In this document: positions 14,050 to 21,675 of the stretch, piece by piece
Layout: every line of letters begins with the position of its first letter
How positions within the stretch are numbered: the stretch's first letter is position 1
DNA from: Escherichia phage FL15
Sequence record: PP400778
Strand: one strand, 5' to 3'
Length of the DNA stretch: 64,000 nucleotides
Notes under the pieces: generated by a model
Databases searched by the model: none
Seen by the model: only the letters and a program-made list of their open reading frames with translations
Told to the model about the DNA's origin: nothing
Made by a program: the position numbers and the translations under genes

Positions 14050-16809
14050 ATGGCAGATTTACAGAGAATCCAATTTAAAAGAACAAGTACGGCAGGTCGC
14101 AAGCCGGATGCGAATATTCTAACTCCGGGTGAACTTGCTATTAACCTAGCGGATCGAAAACTATATACAAAAGATGACAGCAATAATGTAATTACTTTGG
14201 GACACTTTCGCGGTGAGTTGCCATCTGATGCAAATTTAGATAATTATGGACCTACTGGTAAATTTACTGGCGTTTGGTCTAAATCAAGTTCAACAAATGC
14301 GCAGCCAGCAAATAAATTCCCAGAAGCGAATGCTGTAGGTGTATTAGAAGTATTTGTGGCTGGTCAATTTGCTGGCAGTCAGCGTTATACTGTTAGATCT
14401 GGTAACGTTTATATCCGTTCTTTGTCTGCGAAATGGAATGGTGTAGATGGTCCATGGGGTCCGTGGCTCAATATTCAAAATGGCACACGTCCACTATCAA
14501 CTACACTAGACTTGAATACTTTAGGTGATGCTTCTCATTTTGGGTTATGGCGAAATAGTTCAAGTTCCATTGCATCATTTTCTCGAAATTACCCAGAAGA
14601 AGGTGGTCTCGCGCAAGGTCTTTTAGAAATTTATGAAGGTGGTAACTATTCTTGCACGCAACGTTATACTACCCGAATGGGTGTTGTATATGTTCGTTGT
14701 CTTGCAGGTGCATGGGATCCAGAAGCTCCGAATTGGGGACCGTGGCAACAAGTAGGTATGGTTACTCCCAGCACATTCTATGACGGGGATCTTAATAATT
14801 TTCGTTCTCCTGGCTTGTATAACATTTTAGGGACTGATGCCGTTATTAACCGTCCAGTTGCAGAAGGTGTTCCGGTTGAGATGACCGGATTGCTTGAGGT
14901 TAAACAGCGTGCTTCCGGTGGCGCTATTTTCCAACGTTTCACTACCGCAGGAACGGGTGCAACTACGCGATCTCGCGTGTTTGAACGTGCAATGACAAAT
15001 AATATCTGGGGAAATTGGTACGAAGTATATACGTCCTATTCTATGCCAATTACTTTGGGTATGGGTGGTGTTAAAACTCAATTAGCGGAGCTAGATTGGC
15101 AAACATTTGATTTTGTTCCTGGTAGTATGTTTAGCGTTCCTTTGAACAAAATAAAGAACATGCCAGCAAATATGAATTGGGGTACGATTGACGGAGACTT
15201 GGTTATGTTTTCTGTCGGTCCTAGCGAACACACTGGCACAGGACGTACTGTTCAGGTTTGGCGTGGTACTGTATCCCAGACAAACTACCGTTATTTTGTC
15301 GTTCGTGTGTTCGGTAATTCTGGAAATAGAACTTGCACAGTTCGCCGTGTTGTTCTTGAAGATGGATCACATACTTGGACTGCTCAACAAAACTTTAGGG
15401 GATTGTTGAATATCACTGCTGCTGTTAATCTTGGTGCTAATCAGAAAATTTCACTTGCTCCAGGAGCATATATTCAAGCCCCTGCTAGCGGTTCTGGTTC
15501 TAATACTTACGCGAATCAGAATACTACCATTGCACCATTATATCAGGCCATTGACGATTCAAATAAAAACCAGTTTGCGCCAATTGTTAAACAGAAAAAC
15601 ACTGTAACAAATATTACTATGGCTTCTGGTATGGATATTGCTAGTTCAGAATATCGTATCGTTGCTCAGGGTGATTTATCCGCTACTGGAACTACAGCCA
15701 CTGAATTAGCTACATGGCGTTTCTTGCCGTCTGGCCGATTCATGTCACAAAGCCGAGTTTATGCTGGCGCAGCATTCTTGAACACTGATGGTAACATTGC
15801 TGGTTCAATCTGGAAGAAATACAACGATGCAACCAATTTAGATGCTGCCTTGAATACTCGCCTAGGTAAAGGCGGTGATACGATGACAGGTCGGTTAACA
15901 ATCAATGCACCTAATGATTCTATCGTATTATCAACAACTGCTAGTAATTCTTTGCATATTCGCGGTGACATAGACGGGACTGGTAACTGGTATATTGGCA
16001 AGGGTGGTGCTGATAATGGATTAGCGTTCTATAGTTATGCTACTAATGCTGCTGTAAACATTACAAACGCGGGGGATATCGCTCTAAGTCCAAAAGGCAT
16101 CGAAATGACTCATGTCAATAACGTTCGATTCTATGTTCATGGTGAACGTTGGACTGCTAGCCAATCTGGAGGTTGGAACGACCAATGGGGATTAGAAGCT
16201 CCGATATTTGTTGACCACGGCTATGTTGGACCAGACAGTTATTATCCGATTATCAAAGGAAGAAGTTTAATCACCAATCAAGGATATACAACTGCCGTCG
16301 ATTTTGGTCTACGTCGTGTCCCTAACAATTGGGGGCAAGCAATTATTCGTGTTGGATCTGCGGAAAACTCGCCAGCGGCTGGTCATCCTCAAGCTGTATT
16401 CGAGTTCCATCATGATGGTACTTTCTATTCTCCAGGTAATGGTAACTTTAACGATGTGTATATTCGTTCCGATGGTCGTCTTAAGATTAATAAAAAAGAG
16501 CTAGAAAACGGAGCACTTGAAAAAGTATGTCGACTGAAAGTTTATATTTACGATAAAGTTAAGTCTATTAAAGACCGTAGTGTTATTAAACGTGAAGTTG
16601 GTATTATTGCTCAGGACCTTGAAAAGGAATTACCGGAAGCTGTATCTAAAGTTGAAGTTGATGGATCTGATGTTCTGACAATTTCTAACTCTGCAGTGAA
16701 TGCTCTTTTAATTAAGGCTATTCAGGAAATGAGTGAAGAAATTAAAGAATTGAAAACGCCTCTCTTTACTAAAATTGCTCGCAAAATTAGTAAATATTTT
16801 AAATTCTAA
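14050..16809 (+). CDS. 37: long tail fibre distal subunit gp37 with C-terminal intramolecular chaperone domain
   Basis: 919 aa; N-terminus MADLQRIQFKRTSTAGRKPDANILTPGELAINLADRKLYTKDDS matches gp37; C-terminal ~100 aa (GIIAQDLEKELPEAV...ISNSAVNALLIKAIQE) resembles S74-type intramolecular chaperone. Confidence 0.9.
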   Translation: MADLQRIQFKRTSTAGRKPDANILTPGELAINLADRKLYTKDDSNNVITLGHFRGELPSDANLDNYGPTGKFTGVWSKSSSTNAQPANKFPEANAVGVLEVFVAGQFAGSQRYTVRSGNVYIRSLSAKWNGVDGPWGPWLNIQNGTRPLSTTLDLNTLGDASHFGLWRNSSSSIASFSRNYPEEGGLAQGLLEIYEGGNYSCTQRYTTRMGVVYVRCLAGAWDPEAPNWGPWQQVGMVTPSTFYDGDLNNFRSPGLYNILGTDAVINRPVAEGVPVEMTGLLEVKQRASGGAIFQRFTTAGTGATTRSRVFERAMTNNIWGNWYEVYTSYSMPITLGMGGVKTQLAELDWQTFDFVPGSMFSVPLNKIKNMPANMNWGTIDGDLVMFSVGPSEHTGTGRTVQVWRGTVSQTNYRYFVVRVFGNSGNRTCTVRRVVLEDGSHTWTAQQNFRGLLNITAAVNLGANQKISLAPGAYIQAPASGSGSNTYANQNTTIAPLYQAIDDSNKNQFAPIVKQKNTVTNITMASGMDIASSEYRIVAQGDLSATGTTATELATWRFLPSGRFMSQSRVYAGAAFLNTDGNIAGSIWKKYNDATNLDAALNTRLGKGGDTMTGRLTINAPNDSIVLSTTASNSLHIRGDIDGTGNWYIGKGGADNGLAFYSYATNAAVNITNAGDIALSPKGIEMTHVNNVRFYVHGERWTASQSGGWNDQWGLEAPIFVDHGYVGPDSYYPIIKGRSLITNQGYTTAVDFGLRRVPNNWGQAIIRVGSAENSPAAGHPQAVFEFHHDGTFYSPGNGNFNDVYIRSDGRLKINKKELENGALEKVCRLKVYIYDKVKSIKDRSVIKREVGIIAQDLEKELPEAVSKVEVDGSDVLTISNSAVNALLIKAIQEMSEEIKELKTPLFTKIARKISKYFKF

Positions 16810-16844: not shown

Positions 16845-17627
16845 ATGGCAGTAGTTGGAGTTCCTGGCTGGATTGGAAGTTCAGCCGTAAATGAAACGGG
16901 TCAGCGCTGGATGAGTCAAGCGGCTGGTCAATTAAGATTGGGTGTTCCTTGCTGGATGAGTCAATTTTCAGGTCGCTCGCGAGAAATTATTCACACGCTT
17001 GGCGCAGACCATAACTTCAATGGTCAGTGGTTCCGTGATAGATGCTTTGAGGCAGGTAATGCACCTATAGTGTTTAATATTACCGGTGATTTAGTATCAT
17101 ATTCTAAAGATGTTCCTTTATTCTTCATGTACGGAGATACACCAAATGAATATGTTCAGTTGAATATACATGGCGTAACGATGTATGGTCGTGGCGGGAA
17201 TGGCGGTAGCAATGGTCCTGGATCAGCCGGGGGGCATTGTATTCAAAATGATATTGGTGGGAGACTAAGAATTAATAATGGTGGAGCTATTGCAGGTGGC
17301 GGTGGCGGTGGCGGTGGCGGGTATTATTCTCCTTTTTCACAAATGAGATTAACCTTTGGCGGTGGCGGTGGGCGTCCGTTTGGTGCGCCCGGCGGATCTA
17401 TTGATATGCAATCAGGCGCAACTGCTGGTACTCTTTATGCGCCCGGATCGGGGTCCGTGAACGGTGTCTATAATGGCGGAAGCGGTGGTGAGGTAGGTGC
17501 TGCGGGAGGTAGATGTAATATTCGTGGTCAAGGATCTGAATATAATGGCGGCGATTCTGGATATGCTGTTATAGGGTCTTCTCCAACGTGGCAAAATCGC
17601 GGAGCTATTTACGGACCGGCTGTTTAG
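16845..17627 (+). CDS. 38: T2-type receptor-binding adhesin gp38 (glycine-rich motifs)
   Basis: 260 aa; N-terminus [15 protein letters not shown] and multiple poly-Gly islands separating variable segments are the T2/T6-type gp38 architecture. Confidence 0.85.
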
Positions 17628-18620: not shown

Positions 18621-18626
18621 CTTAAA

Positions 18627-18659
18627 GGGGAAGCCTTTCGGCCTCCCCTTCTTTTTATT
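18627..18659. terminator. intrinsic terminator at the convergence of the late (+) and early (-) blocks
   Basis: Hairpin GGGGAAGCC-TTTC-GGCCTCCCC followed by TTCTTTTTATT on the plus strand. Confidence 0.65.
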
Positions 18660-18903
18660 GGGGCATAGAAGCCCCTGAATCACATTTTGACGCTGTATGA
18701 TGAAAACAGGTAGCGTACCAGTCATCTGCTTGTTTGTCTTCGTCAGAAAACGCGTAATTTCGTTGTGTGCCGTTTTCTACTTTGACCAGTGCAATAGCTG
18801 TTTCTGGAAGATCAATCAGTCGGACAAAATCACCATCTTCCCACTCTACACGAGCAATATCATATCCCATCTCAAAGTATACAATCGCTTGTTCTAATTT
18901 CAT
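18655..18903 (-). CDS. small protein, possibly DUF2829-like
   Basis: 82 aa; start ATG overlaps upstream stop (ATGA coupling); pattern A..Y...G..IAR.EW...................DDW resembles DUF2829 as I remember it. Confidence 0.5.
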   Translation of the reverse strand: MKLEQAIVYFEMGYDIARVEWEDGDFVRLIDLPETAIALVKVENGTQRNYAFSDEDKQADDWYATCFHHTASKCDSGASMPQ

Positions 18904-19223
18904 TCTGGAAACTTCCCGTAAACATTCTCTGCCAGCTTACGTGCATCTTTTACAATATCTTTCATGTAATGACTATAATTTTTAGCTAGATCAATGATGC
19001 AATCAACAAAGAAGTAATAGCGTCGCAGTGCTACCAGCTCAACATCTTCAAGATGACCATTTTCTCCAATCGCTGAAATATGTTTAAATTCCTTTCGGAT
19101 CGCGTCCATCGCTACATTAACTTCTTTTATAATATCTTTCGTATTATATGCACCTCGACTAATCAAAATTTTGGTTAGGTCTTCTGCTTTTTCGTGAAAG
19201 TTGTCAATTTCAAACTCGATCAT
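18900..19223 (-). CDS. hypothetical protein (paralog of 19338-19670)
   Basis: 107-aa ORF; C-terminal ...KDARKLAENVYGKF aligns with ...DEARIMTENIFGKF of the neighbour. Confidence 0.55.
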   Translation of the reverse strand: MIEFEIDNFHEKAEDLTKILISRGAYNTKDIIKEVNVAMDAIRKEFKHISAIGENGHLEDVELVALRRYYFFVDCIIDLAKNYSHYMKDIVKDARKLAENVYGKFPE

Positions 19224-19337
19224 AATCACCTCTCATAATTTCACTCTGTTGTGTCAACATTTTTTCGTGGTTTGCTAATTCTATACCTTGTAATAGCATA
19301 ACCAGTGCAATTTTCAATGATTCATCATCTTTCATAA

Positions 19338-19670
19338 TCAAAATTTACCGAAAATATTCTCTGTCATAATTCTTGCTTCGTCGATTATTTTCGTCATGTT
19401 CATGGTGTAGTTATGATCATTTAGTGCCTTAATGACAACGAGCAAGGAATCTAAAAACACTCGATACCGGGTATATTCTACGCTATTTGTGAATACCGAT
19501 GTTTTCTCTACTTTATCGATCAGATAGCCTAAAGCCGATAGCGCCTCGTTTACTTCCCTTGTTACTTTATCGGCGCTAAACAACACCGGATAAAGACGCG
19601 GTGTGATTAACCGCGCTGCCTCTTTCAATTCGGTAGCTTTCCATGATTCATATTTGTCATAGTTAAACAT
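19338..19670 (-). CDS. hypothetical protein (paralog of 18900-19223)
   Basis: 110-aa ORF with AAGGAG SD; shares C-terminal half with the neighbouring gene. Confidence 0.55.
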   Translation of the reverse strand: MFNYDKYESWKATELKEAARLITPRLYPVLFSADKVTREVNEALSALGYLIDKVEKTSVFTNSVEYTRYRVFLDSLLVVIKALNDHNYTMNMTKIIDEARIMTENIFGKF

Positions 19671-20617: not shown

Positions 20618-20905
20618 TTATTTTCGGTTGTGGTCACGATATGTTTTAAAATATCCCTCGTACCACGGTAAAATATCTGGATTTTTACCACTATACAGAC
20701 CTTTAACCATCATGTCAATAAGGCCATCTGGTGTTTGATAGTTTCCAGCTTTTATAAGCTCTCTGATTAAAATCTCTCTGTATATGTCTTTCGGATCTTC
20801 GTAATCAACTTGTATTGTGGTTGTTGTCTCGCTTAATTTGGTTTCTGGAGTATCTTGCATCGCCTTCCACCAATCTTTTGTAATCTTCATGTTATTGAAT
20901 TGCAT
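20618..20905 (-). CDS. hypothetical protein
   Basis: 95-aa ORF. Confidence 0.45.
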   Translation of the reverse strand: MQFNNMKITKDWWKAMQDTPETKLSETTTTIQVDYEDPKDIYREILIRELIKAGNYQTPDGLIDMMVKGLYSGKNPDILPWYEGYFKTYRDHNRK

Positions 20906-20916
20906 AATTTAACCTC

Positions 20917-21675
20917 TTACTTGCAAACGTATTGATCTACATCAATTGCTCCACCGAATGTAGGATGACGTTTTTCAAATCGAATAGTTCCGTCGTTTGG
21001 TTCGAAAACGGAGTATTCATATAGATCTTTCTTGCCAACATTCTTATAAAACCCGCCTTTAGTCATAACGGTTTCTTGTACGTTTGCTTTGTGTACGTTG
21101 TATTCATCAATGTATACAAAATCAACCATCTTCCCATTTTTAATGGTTACTTTAAGATCCCCTGGCTGGTTTCCATATTTTGCATACAGTGGAGCCTCTT
21201 TAATTTTTGTGGAAATTCCATCTTTCATACTCCACTCATAACGAACGGTGCATTGATAGGTAAAAGTTTCGACCTTCGGTTCTTCTACCACTTTTGCTTC
21301 CTGTTTCGGTTGTTCTTCTTCAACCTTCGCAGAAGTCTCTGAATCGCTTTCTGACGCGGTTTCTTCTTTAGGTAATACATTCATCAAGTTTTGGATTTGA
21401 GCGTTATATACAGCCTCCAGTGGCTGAATCTGCCCGATATTGATCATTGTATCACGAACAGTTTTATTCCAGTTTCGTTGCTCTTGTTTCAGAGACGGAT
21501 CAATCTTAACAGCCTTAACATACACCTCATGAAGTTTAGAGTCCAGTGCGGAGATAGACTCATTAGCACAAATAAACTTCTCTGATTTGGTAGTAGCTTT
21601 AGCGCAATCAAAGGACGCAGCGTTAGCACCGAAAGCAGTAGCAGAAAGAACGATAGCAGCGATAATGTTTTTCAT
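20917..21675 (-). CDS. secreted protein with N-terminal LprI-like (DUF1311) domain
   Basis: 252 aa; signal peptide MKNIIAAIVLSATAFGANA; then C-x10-E-x2-IC...LDSKLHEVY matching the DUF1311 Cys/Leu/Tyr pattern; Glu/Lys-rich linker; C-terminal domain unknown. Confidence 0.6.
   Translation of the reverse strand: MKNIIAAIVLSATAFGANAASFDCAKATTKSEKFICANESISALDSKLHEVYVKAVKIDPSLKQEQRNWNKTVRDTMINIGQIQPLEAVYNAQIQNLMNVLPKEETASESDSETSAKVEEEQPKQEAKVVEEPKVETFTYQCTVRYEWSMKDGISTKIKEAPLYAKYGNQPGDLKVTIKNGKMVDFVYIDEYNVHKANVQETVMTKGGFYKNVGKKDLYEYSVFEPNDGTIRFEKRHPTFGGAIDVDQYVCK

Follow-up and report, generated by a model that had tools for sequence, protein, structure and literature searches.

A minimal, acidic Tad2-like protein encoded beside the holin gene of an RB49-like coliphage, a candidate anti-defense sponge

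Introduction

SPO1 Tad2 (gp34.65; PDB IDs 8SME, 8SMF, 8SMG, and 8WJE), the founding Tad2 sponge, is a small stand-alone phage protein of 89 residues. It forms a homotetramer in which two V-shaped dimers, each held together via helix α2 and strand β2, interlock along helix α1, and it has two pockets, each located between protomers that do not form a dimer with each other (bioRxiv 10.1101/2023.05.01.538930). The β1-β2 loop, the β3-β4 loop, strand β4, the β4-α3 loop, and helix α3 line the pocket, where W25, N26, I63, T65, D67, H71, W73, S76, T78, and D79 contact 1''-3' gcADPR (bioRxiv 10.1101/2023.05.01.538930). In HgmTad2 (AcrIIA7; PDB IDs 8KBI to 8KBM and 8WJC), the W21A/N22A and S90A/T92A/D93A mutants show reduced or lost gcADPR binding, and a long insertion between β2 and β5 provides a second pocket for cyclic dinucleotides; the same study, by Li et al., found the gcADPR site conserved in about 99% of Tad2 homologs (bioRxiv 10.1101/2023.11.15.567273). 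MoTad2 (ModTad2; PDB IDs 9EIB and 8V3E) holds His-ADPR in the canonical site and cUMP or cCMP at a second interface, and other Tad2 homologs bind N7-cADPR (bioRxiv 10.1101/2025.08.24.671296). The known sponges Tad1, Tad2, Acb2, Acb4, and Sequestin are homo-oligomers with positively charged pockets between protomers (bioRxiv 10.1101/2025.07.12.664507).

According to Hadary et al. 2025, who draw on a set of 7,492 Tad2 homologs, most tested ones with a WNGK loop act against one or more types of Thoeris (Table S2). The same table includes six tested homologs lacking WNGK (Tad2_69, 72, 75, 79, 80, and 81), among which Tad2_79 alone is active; although its motifs read KWSKD and PWKETMIEL instead of the canonical ones, it inhibits type I and type IV Thoeris. 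[quoted passage not shown] Roughly half of the homologs assayed in that source are given as inactive. In our reading, deviation from the motifs may be compatible with activity but would lower its prior probability considerably.

Results

The window, i.e., the whole 64,000-nucleotide stretch of DNA analyzed here (sequence record PP400778), contains an 82-amino-acid (82-aa) open reading frame (ORF) that an earlier note, made from the letters alone, had placed at 18655..18903 and likened to DUF2829, the family of Tad2. The ORF lies exactly there, on the minus strand (the note gave no strand); it begins with ATG and contains both peptides quoted in the note (IVYFEMGYDIARVEW and SDEDKQADDWY). What had been said of its surroundings also proved accurate. 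Translational coupling to the upstream neighbor takes the form of an ATGA overlap (18900..18903, minus strand), in which the ATG overlaps the TGA of a 109-aa ORF (18900..19229, minus strand); read on the minus strand, the junction is ...GGG AAG TTT CCA GAA TGA AAT TAG..., and the two ORFs share the ATGA. An overlap of 1 to 4 nucleotides between start and stop is likewise kept in two divergent metagenomic relatives (L004 and L005). The position beside the holin terminator is equally exact, with the stop codon (18655-18657) adjoining a G+C-rich hairpin at 18626..18650 that separates the ORF from the convergent holin gene t on the plus strand. This hairpin folds on both strands, more strongly on the minus strand (-23.6 kcal/mol, z = -4.5) than on the plus strand (-17.5 kcal/mol), where it is followed by the U-rich tract CUUCUUUUUAUU and terminates holin gene t. 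We read it as a bidirectional terminator; two public Krischvirus records (TB34 and GEC-3S) carry a terminator annotation at the hairpin.

The Tad2-like gene closes a run of small, leftward-reading ORFs that lies between topoisomerase gene 52 and the holin gene. Upstream of this minus-strand run, the best sigma-70-like match in a consensus scan scores 11/12 (TTGACA-17-TATAGT; 20690..20718, minus strand); it is a possible early promoter by inference only, since shuffled sequence yields promoter-like matches at least as often as this region does. The layout (last in the run, coupled to its neighbor, and followed by a bidirectional terminator), taken with the gene order and the sigma-70-like match, suggests early expression of the gene.

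The region is 98.6 to 99.2% identical to RB49-like coliphages (genus Krischvirus, family Straboviridae), in which the ORF corresponds to RB49p255 (NP_891826.1), located between holin gene t and the leftward small ORFs toward gene 52. An identical protein is on record for Escherichia phage FL15 (XAO14309.1), and every GenBank record inspected or listed labels the product "hypothetical protein." Compared with RB49 and most Krischvirus copies, the window protein carries I46T and R81P, the exact sequence being recorded only for FL15; residue 46 aligns with HgmTad2 T82, an adenine contact. The ORF is intact in all 58 Krischvirus records of the phage collection, at 95 to 98% amino acid identity. Comparison with RB49 and TB34 revealed 5 to 7 synonymous and 2 nonsynonymous differences (pN, 0.010; pS, 0.10 to 0.14), i.e., a pN/pS ratio of about 0.1 or less.

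Beyond the genus, relatives are few. An exhaustive HMMER (phmmer) search of 1.84 billion representatives returned the Krischvirus cluster, two full-length metagenomic relatives, and two fragments; the only full-length relatives outside the cluster are P0003 (57% identity) and P0004 (44 to 49%). On both of their contigs, the homolog overlaps the ORF upstream of it, which is about 110 aa long, and converges on a T-type holin, and the longer P0004 contig also has gp38 and gene 52 close by. This gene context means that length, position, and coupling are kept down to about 45% identity, a distance over which the holin is 85% identical and the upstream neighbors are 27 to 58% identical. For the acidic subfamily to which these proteins belong, the 1.8 billion representatives and 5.8 billion clusters searched yielded only four clusters, each in an RB49-like context, and two word-indexed searches added no member to it.

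Some matches had to be set aside. P0006 to P0009 are spurious as homologs, being long repeat proteins, two of which have strong Pfam matches as eukaryotic fibronectin-III proteins that match through an 'RVEWEDG'-like repeat. The 83-aa metagenomic sequence P0002 consists of the first 58 or so residues of the Tad2-like ORF joined to its antisense translation (window positions 18697..18897, plus strand); to judge from this composition, it looks like a fold-back assembly artifact and not a variant.

A subfamily so small, confined to RB49-like contexts, is what might be expected if the gene were a hitchhiking Tad2 remnant, decayed or dispensable, with no current anti-defense role in E. coli hosts, and the inactivity of about half of the Tad2 homologs tested by Hadary et al. 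2025 points the same way. We nevertheless regard such decay as highly improbable, because the ORF is intact in 58/58 genomes with a pN/pS of about 0.1 or less and because relatives as distant as 44% identity still share its length, position, and coupling, although neighboring ORFs diverge as much or more (27 to 33% identity).

The earlier note had given a search against PF11195 (now named Tad2-like) as the check on its DUF2829 guess. Run here, the search supports the guess with a significant match, by a small margin (E = 1.7e-6; 28.9 bits against a gathering score of 25 bits), spanning residues 1 to 63 and profile positions 1 to 71 of 73. The relatives P0001, P0003, and P0004 score 27.9, 26.1, and 25.5 bits, respectively, so that each exceeds the gathering score on its own. 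The label is not new, since the assignment already stands in precomputed Pfam tables and in UniRef, where the Krischvirus cluster is named "Thoeris anti-defense 2-like domain-containing protein." PHROGs places the ORF in phrog_1048 and gives no function there, and NCBIfam yielded no match for the protein.

An AlphaFold2 model built from a four-sequence alignment (mean pLDDT, 75; pTM, 0.63) predicts a helix at residues 3 to 11, strands at 14 to 21, 25 to 32, 36 to 43, and 46 to 50, a helix at 54 to 58, a strand at 63 to 67, and a disordered tail. This is the Tad2 fold, namely, an N-terminal helix, an antiparallel β-sheet, and a short helix before the last strand, and its core is that of the solved Tad2s HgmTad2 and ModTad2; SPO1 Tad2 belongs to the same Pfam family. 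The hydrophobic pattern of α1 (L3, A6, I7, F10, and G13) is retained as well. The best Foldseek match in the PDB was the Myroides Tad2 structure 8v3e, with a probability of 1.00 but an E value of 0.08. In the viral structure library BFVD, the Krischvirus protein itself ranked first, and ranks 2 to 16 all had probabilities of at least 0.87, every named one being Tad2-like or DUF2829 (six had no name).

Sequence comparison with characterized Tad2 proteins gave weaker signals. An hhalign comparison of the subfamily with a profile of characterized Tad2s reached 86.6% probability over the N-terminal 32 columns only (α1-β2), a restriction due to the insertion present in those proteins, and a profile of 94 canonical Tad2s plus SPO1 Tad2 scored the window protein at 9 bits, mostly over α1-β1. 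PDB sequence searches with the protein alone (phmmer) or with the four-sequence profile found no Tad2, and the solved Tad2 chains were retrieved only through a made-up DUF2829 consensus query. A wider family search returned 1,639 proteins, the best 120 of which, being the most canonical (118 with WNGK), give no unbiased family frequencies. Membership in the fold family is well supported, with the protein at the edge of that family. As modeled, it appears to be the most reduced Tad2-like form seen here, with α1, a five-stranded antiparallel sheet, a short helix before β5, and a 15-residue tail; the domain covers residues 1 to 67, and residues 68 to 82 are predicted to be disordered.

With only 82 codons, and overlapped by antisense ORFs of 66 to 72 codons, the frame could in principle have arisen by chance in AT-rich intergenic sequence. 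Such an origin is effectively refuted by the Pfam match above threshold, the confident fold, the purifying selection, the synteny, and the ATGA coupling: the Tad2-like ORF is a real gene under selection.

Its pocket was compared with those of SPO1 Tad2 (translated from the SPO1 genome), MoTad2, HgmTad2, SptTad2, and the tested homologs of Hadary et al. In this alignment, three of the ten SPO1 Tad2 ligand contacts are identical in the window protein (W25 is W21, S76 is S53, and D79 is D56), four are conservatively replaced (I63 by V40, D67 by N44, H71 by R48, and W73 by Y50), and three are changed nonconservatively (N26 to E22, T65 to V42, and T78 to E55); the gcADPR-contact residues that would mark a functional Tad2 are, hence, not all in place. 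Outside the contact list, W85 and R22 of SPO1 Tad2 are also kept, as W62 and R18. The mutationally validated HgmTad2 residues N22 and T92 correspond to E22 and E55, and the GWNGK pocket loop reads EWEDG. The lysine of that loop, which is Asp or Gly here depending on the alignment, is invariant in 11 of 11 characterized or active Tad2s and is found in 118 of the top 120 matches to the family. Against the roughly 99% conservation that Li et al. report for the gcADPR site, the window protein falls in a rare deviant class. Residues invariant within its own subfamily occupy 9 of 22 pocket positions and 18 of 43 positions elsewhere (our own count, alignment A1), for which reason we make no claim of enrichment in the pocket.

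The second difference concerns the β2-β3 insertion. The 24 residues that bear helix α2 and form the dimer interface in SPO1 Tad2 (residues 36 to 59) are wholly absent, in both the alignment and the model, and a four-residue turn stands in their place. All elements of the canonical pocket are present, but neither a second ligand site nor the helix that forms the dimer is. Since the insertion makes the dimer, the tetramer and its pocket may not form, and since no insertion is available to build a second, cyclic-nucleotide site, only the canonical site is possible. The protein thereby differs from the dual-site types: HgmTad2, which binds cGG and cGAMP, has a long insertion at residues 32 to 72, SptTad2 (PDB ID 8WJD) has an insertion of this kind, and ModTad2 keeps GWNGKG, W..S.SD, and the insertion of the cUMP site. 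The long insertion that gives HgmTad2, SptTad2, and MoTad2 their second pocket has no counterpart here.

Among the proteins tested by Hadary et al. 2025, the nearest architecture is that of Tad2_80, a 73-aa metagenomic protein with no β2-β3 insertion, the loop EWPDDG, a C-terminal ...STGDMSGTDW, and a net charge of -6.4. It is the only other insertion-less acidic form in that source, and its pairwise BLAST similarity to the window protein is not significant.

These comparisons bear directly on whether the protein acts as a canonical Tad2, i.e., as a tetramer that binds 1''-3' gcADPR (3'cADPR) and blocks type I Thoeris. The gathering score passed and the fold present, the retention of W21, S53, and D56, with Y50 in place of W73, and the inhibition of type I Thoeris by most tested canonical Tad2s are in its favor, as is Tad2_79, which in Hadary et al. 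2025 works despite noncanonical motifs. Yet N26 to E22 and T78 to E55 would place carboxylates at the diphosphate and adenine contacts, the GWNGK lysine and the dimer-forming insertion are lost, the net charge is -9, and Tad2_80 inhibited neither type I nor type II Thoeris in that source; the protein also deviates from the site that Li et al. found nearly universal. We consider canonical activity a minority possibility, and quite unlikely. As far as the sequence goes, Thoeris inhibition by gcADPR binding in the manner of Tad2 is not supported.

The third difference is electrostatic. The window protein has a net charge of -9.3 and a pI of 4.35; P0003 and P0004 have net charges of -8 to -10, and the three divergent members have pIs of 4.3 to 4.5. 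SPO1 Tad2 has a charge of about -3 against -9 here, where there is in addition the 15-residue disordered tail, and the range for SPO1 Tad2, MoTad2, HgmTad2, Tad2_71, and Tad2_79 is -0.4 to -3.4. Set against the short, homo-oligomeric, positively charged sponges, we have a protein of 82 aa with an acidic pocket loop and a net charge of -9.3. Such a surface might reflect reuse of the Tad2 fold, to bind a basic host protein or nucleic-acid-binding protein, like DNA mimics and other acidic phage-encoded inhibitors, or else to bind a ligand of the cation or polyamine type. The strongly negative charge conserved across the three divergent members (-8 to -10; pI, 4.3 to 4.5), the charge reversals in the pocket loop, the loss of the second-site and dimer elements, and the very weak score against canonical Tad2 profiles all fit this alternative. 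We still judge it unlikely, because no family member is known to target a protein, an earlier claim that AcrIIA7, a DUF2829 protein, acts against Cas9 was not reproduced (bioRxiv 10.1101/2023.11.15.567273), the aromatic and Ser/Asp scaffold of the pocket is still present, and the domain, at only about 65 residues, is on the small side for a DNA mimic.

Discussion

Our analysis supports the Tad2-like family call of the earlier note, which was right but not new; what it adds is the position of this protein as a minimal, charge-reversed outlier whose function should, on that account, not be read off the family name. The protein is best seen, on present comparisons, as a conserved sponge candidate against host defense, probably expressed early. 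That it is an immune-signal sponge of some specificity is a reading to which we give a little less than an even chance (about 0.45), canonical 3'cADPR trapping with type I Thoeris inhibition being the smaller part of it. The pocket scaffold appears partly retained (W21, S53, and D56, with Y50 as a conservative replacement), which would be compatible with it, and precedent comes from the active Tad2_79 and from the homologs that have diverged to His-ADPR, N7-cADPR, and cUMP.

If the protein is such a sponge, α1 and the sheet would assemble the protomers into a homo-oligomer, and a small nucleotide-derived immune signal would be sequestered in a pocket between protomers, made up of the β1-β2 loop (W21-E22-D23-G24) and the β4-α3 segment (Y50, S53, E55, and D56). 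Trapping of the signal would keep a host abortive-infection effector off. In view of the Asn-to-Glu, Thr-to-Glu, and Lys-to-Asp or -Gly changes and the net charge of -9, the ligand is probably not bound as SPO1 Tad2 binds 3'cADPR. A more specific, and very doubtful, version is that the protein belongs to a separate minimal acidic Tad2 branch with an oligomer of its own, in which E22, D23, and E55, together with Y50, S53, and D56, form a pocket that binds a novel immune signal. A candidate for that signal would be a positively charged or metal-bridged ADPR conjugate from a TIR or other signaling defense of Enterobacteria. Literature searches for papers that connect Krischvirus or RB49 to Tad2, DUF2829, Thoeris, or anti-defense returned nothing relevant.

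The practical value at present lies in correcting the annotation of the roughly 60 GenBank records of Krischvirus in which the product is labeled "hypothetical protein." If the protein does inhibit a signaling defense, no T4-like coliphage genus would have had an anti-Thoeris-type sponge assigned to it before, and this single-site domain of some 65 residues would be the smallest Tad2 scaffold that works. Should it bind a different ligand, it would be a ready-made affinity reagent for finding that ligand and, if the signal is novel, a bait for signal discovery, as ModTad2 served for His-ADPR. We regard this Tad2-like protein as a modestly interesting candidate for testing and not as a discovery.

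The neighboring genes call for a few remarks. The 109-aa ORF coupled to the Tad2-like gene is considered here as a neighbor only; together with a second ORF at 19338..19670 (minus strand), it forms a tandem pair of distant paralogs (109 to 110 aa, 26% identity, both in phrog_9457), and the ATGA coupling of the proximal copy is an arrangement kept in the divergent relatives. Neither Pfam (no significant match) nor the PDB (no meaningful one) offers a relative for the pair. Because fusions of Tad2 domains with other sponge families are common, the structures of these neighbors may be worth examining. A predicted 43-aa ORF starting with TTG (19210..19341, minus strand) bridges the two paralogs and overlaps each at one end; its counterpart in RB49 is an annotated 41-aa coding sequence (RB49p256.1).

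On the plus strand, a gp37-like distal long-tail-fiber protein of 919 aa (14050..16809) ends in a Peptidase_S74 intramolecular-chaperone domain (residues 807 to 865), and despite that domain it is followed by a separate gp38-type adhesin gene (16845..17627, plus strand; PF05268 and PF21721). Finally, among the leftward small ORFs, a 252-aa ORF (20917..21675, minus strand) carries a Pfam LprI (lysozyme-inhibitor) domain at residues 24 to 76 and, judged by eye from its sequence, an apparent N-terminal signal peptide.
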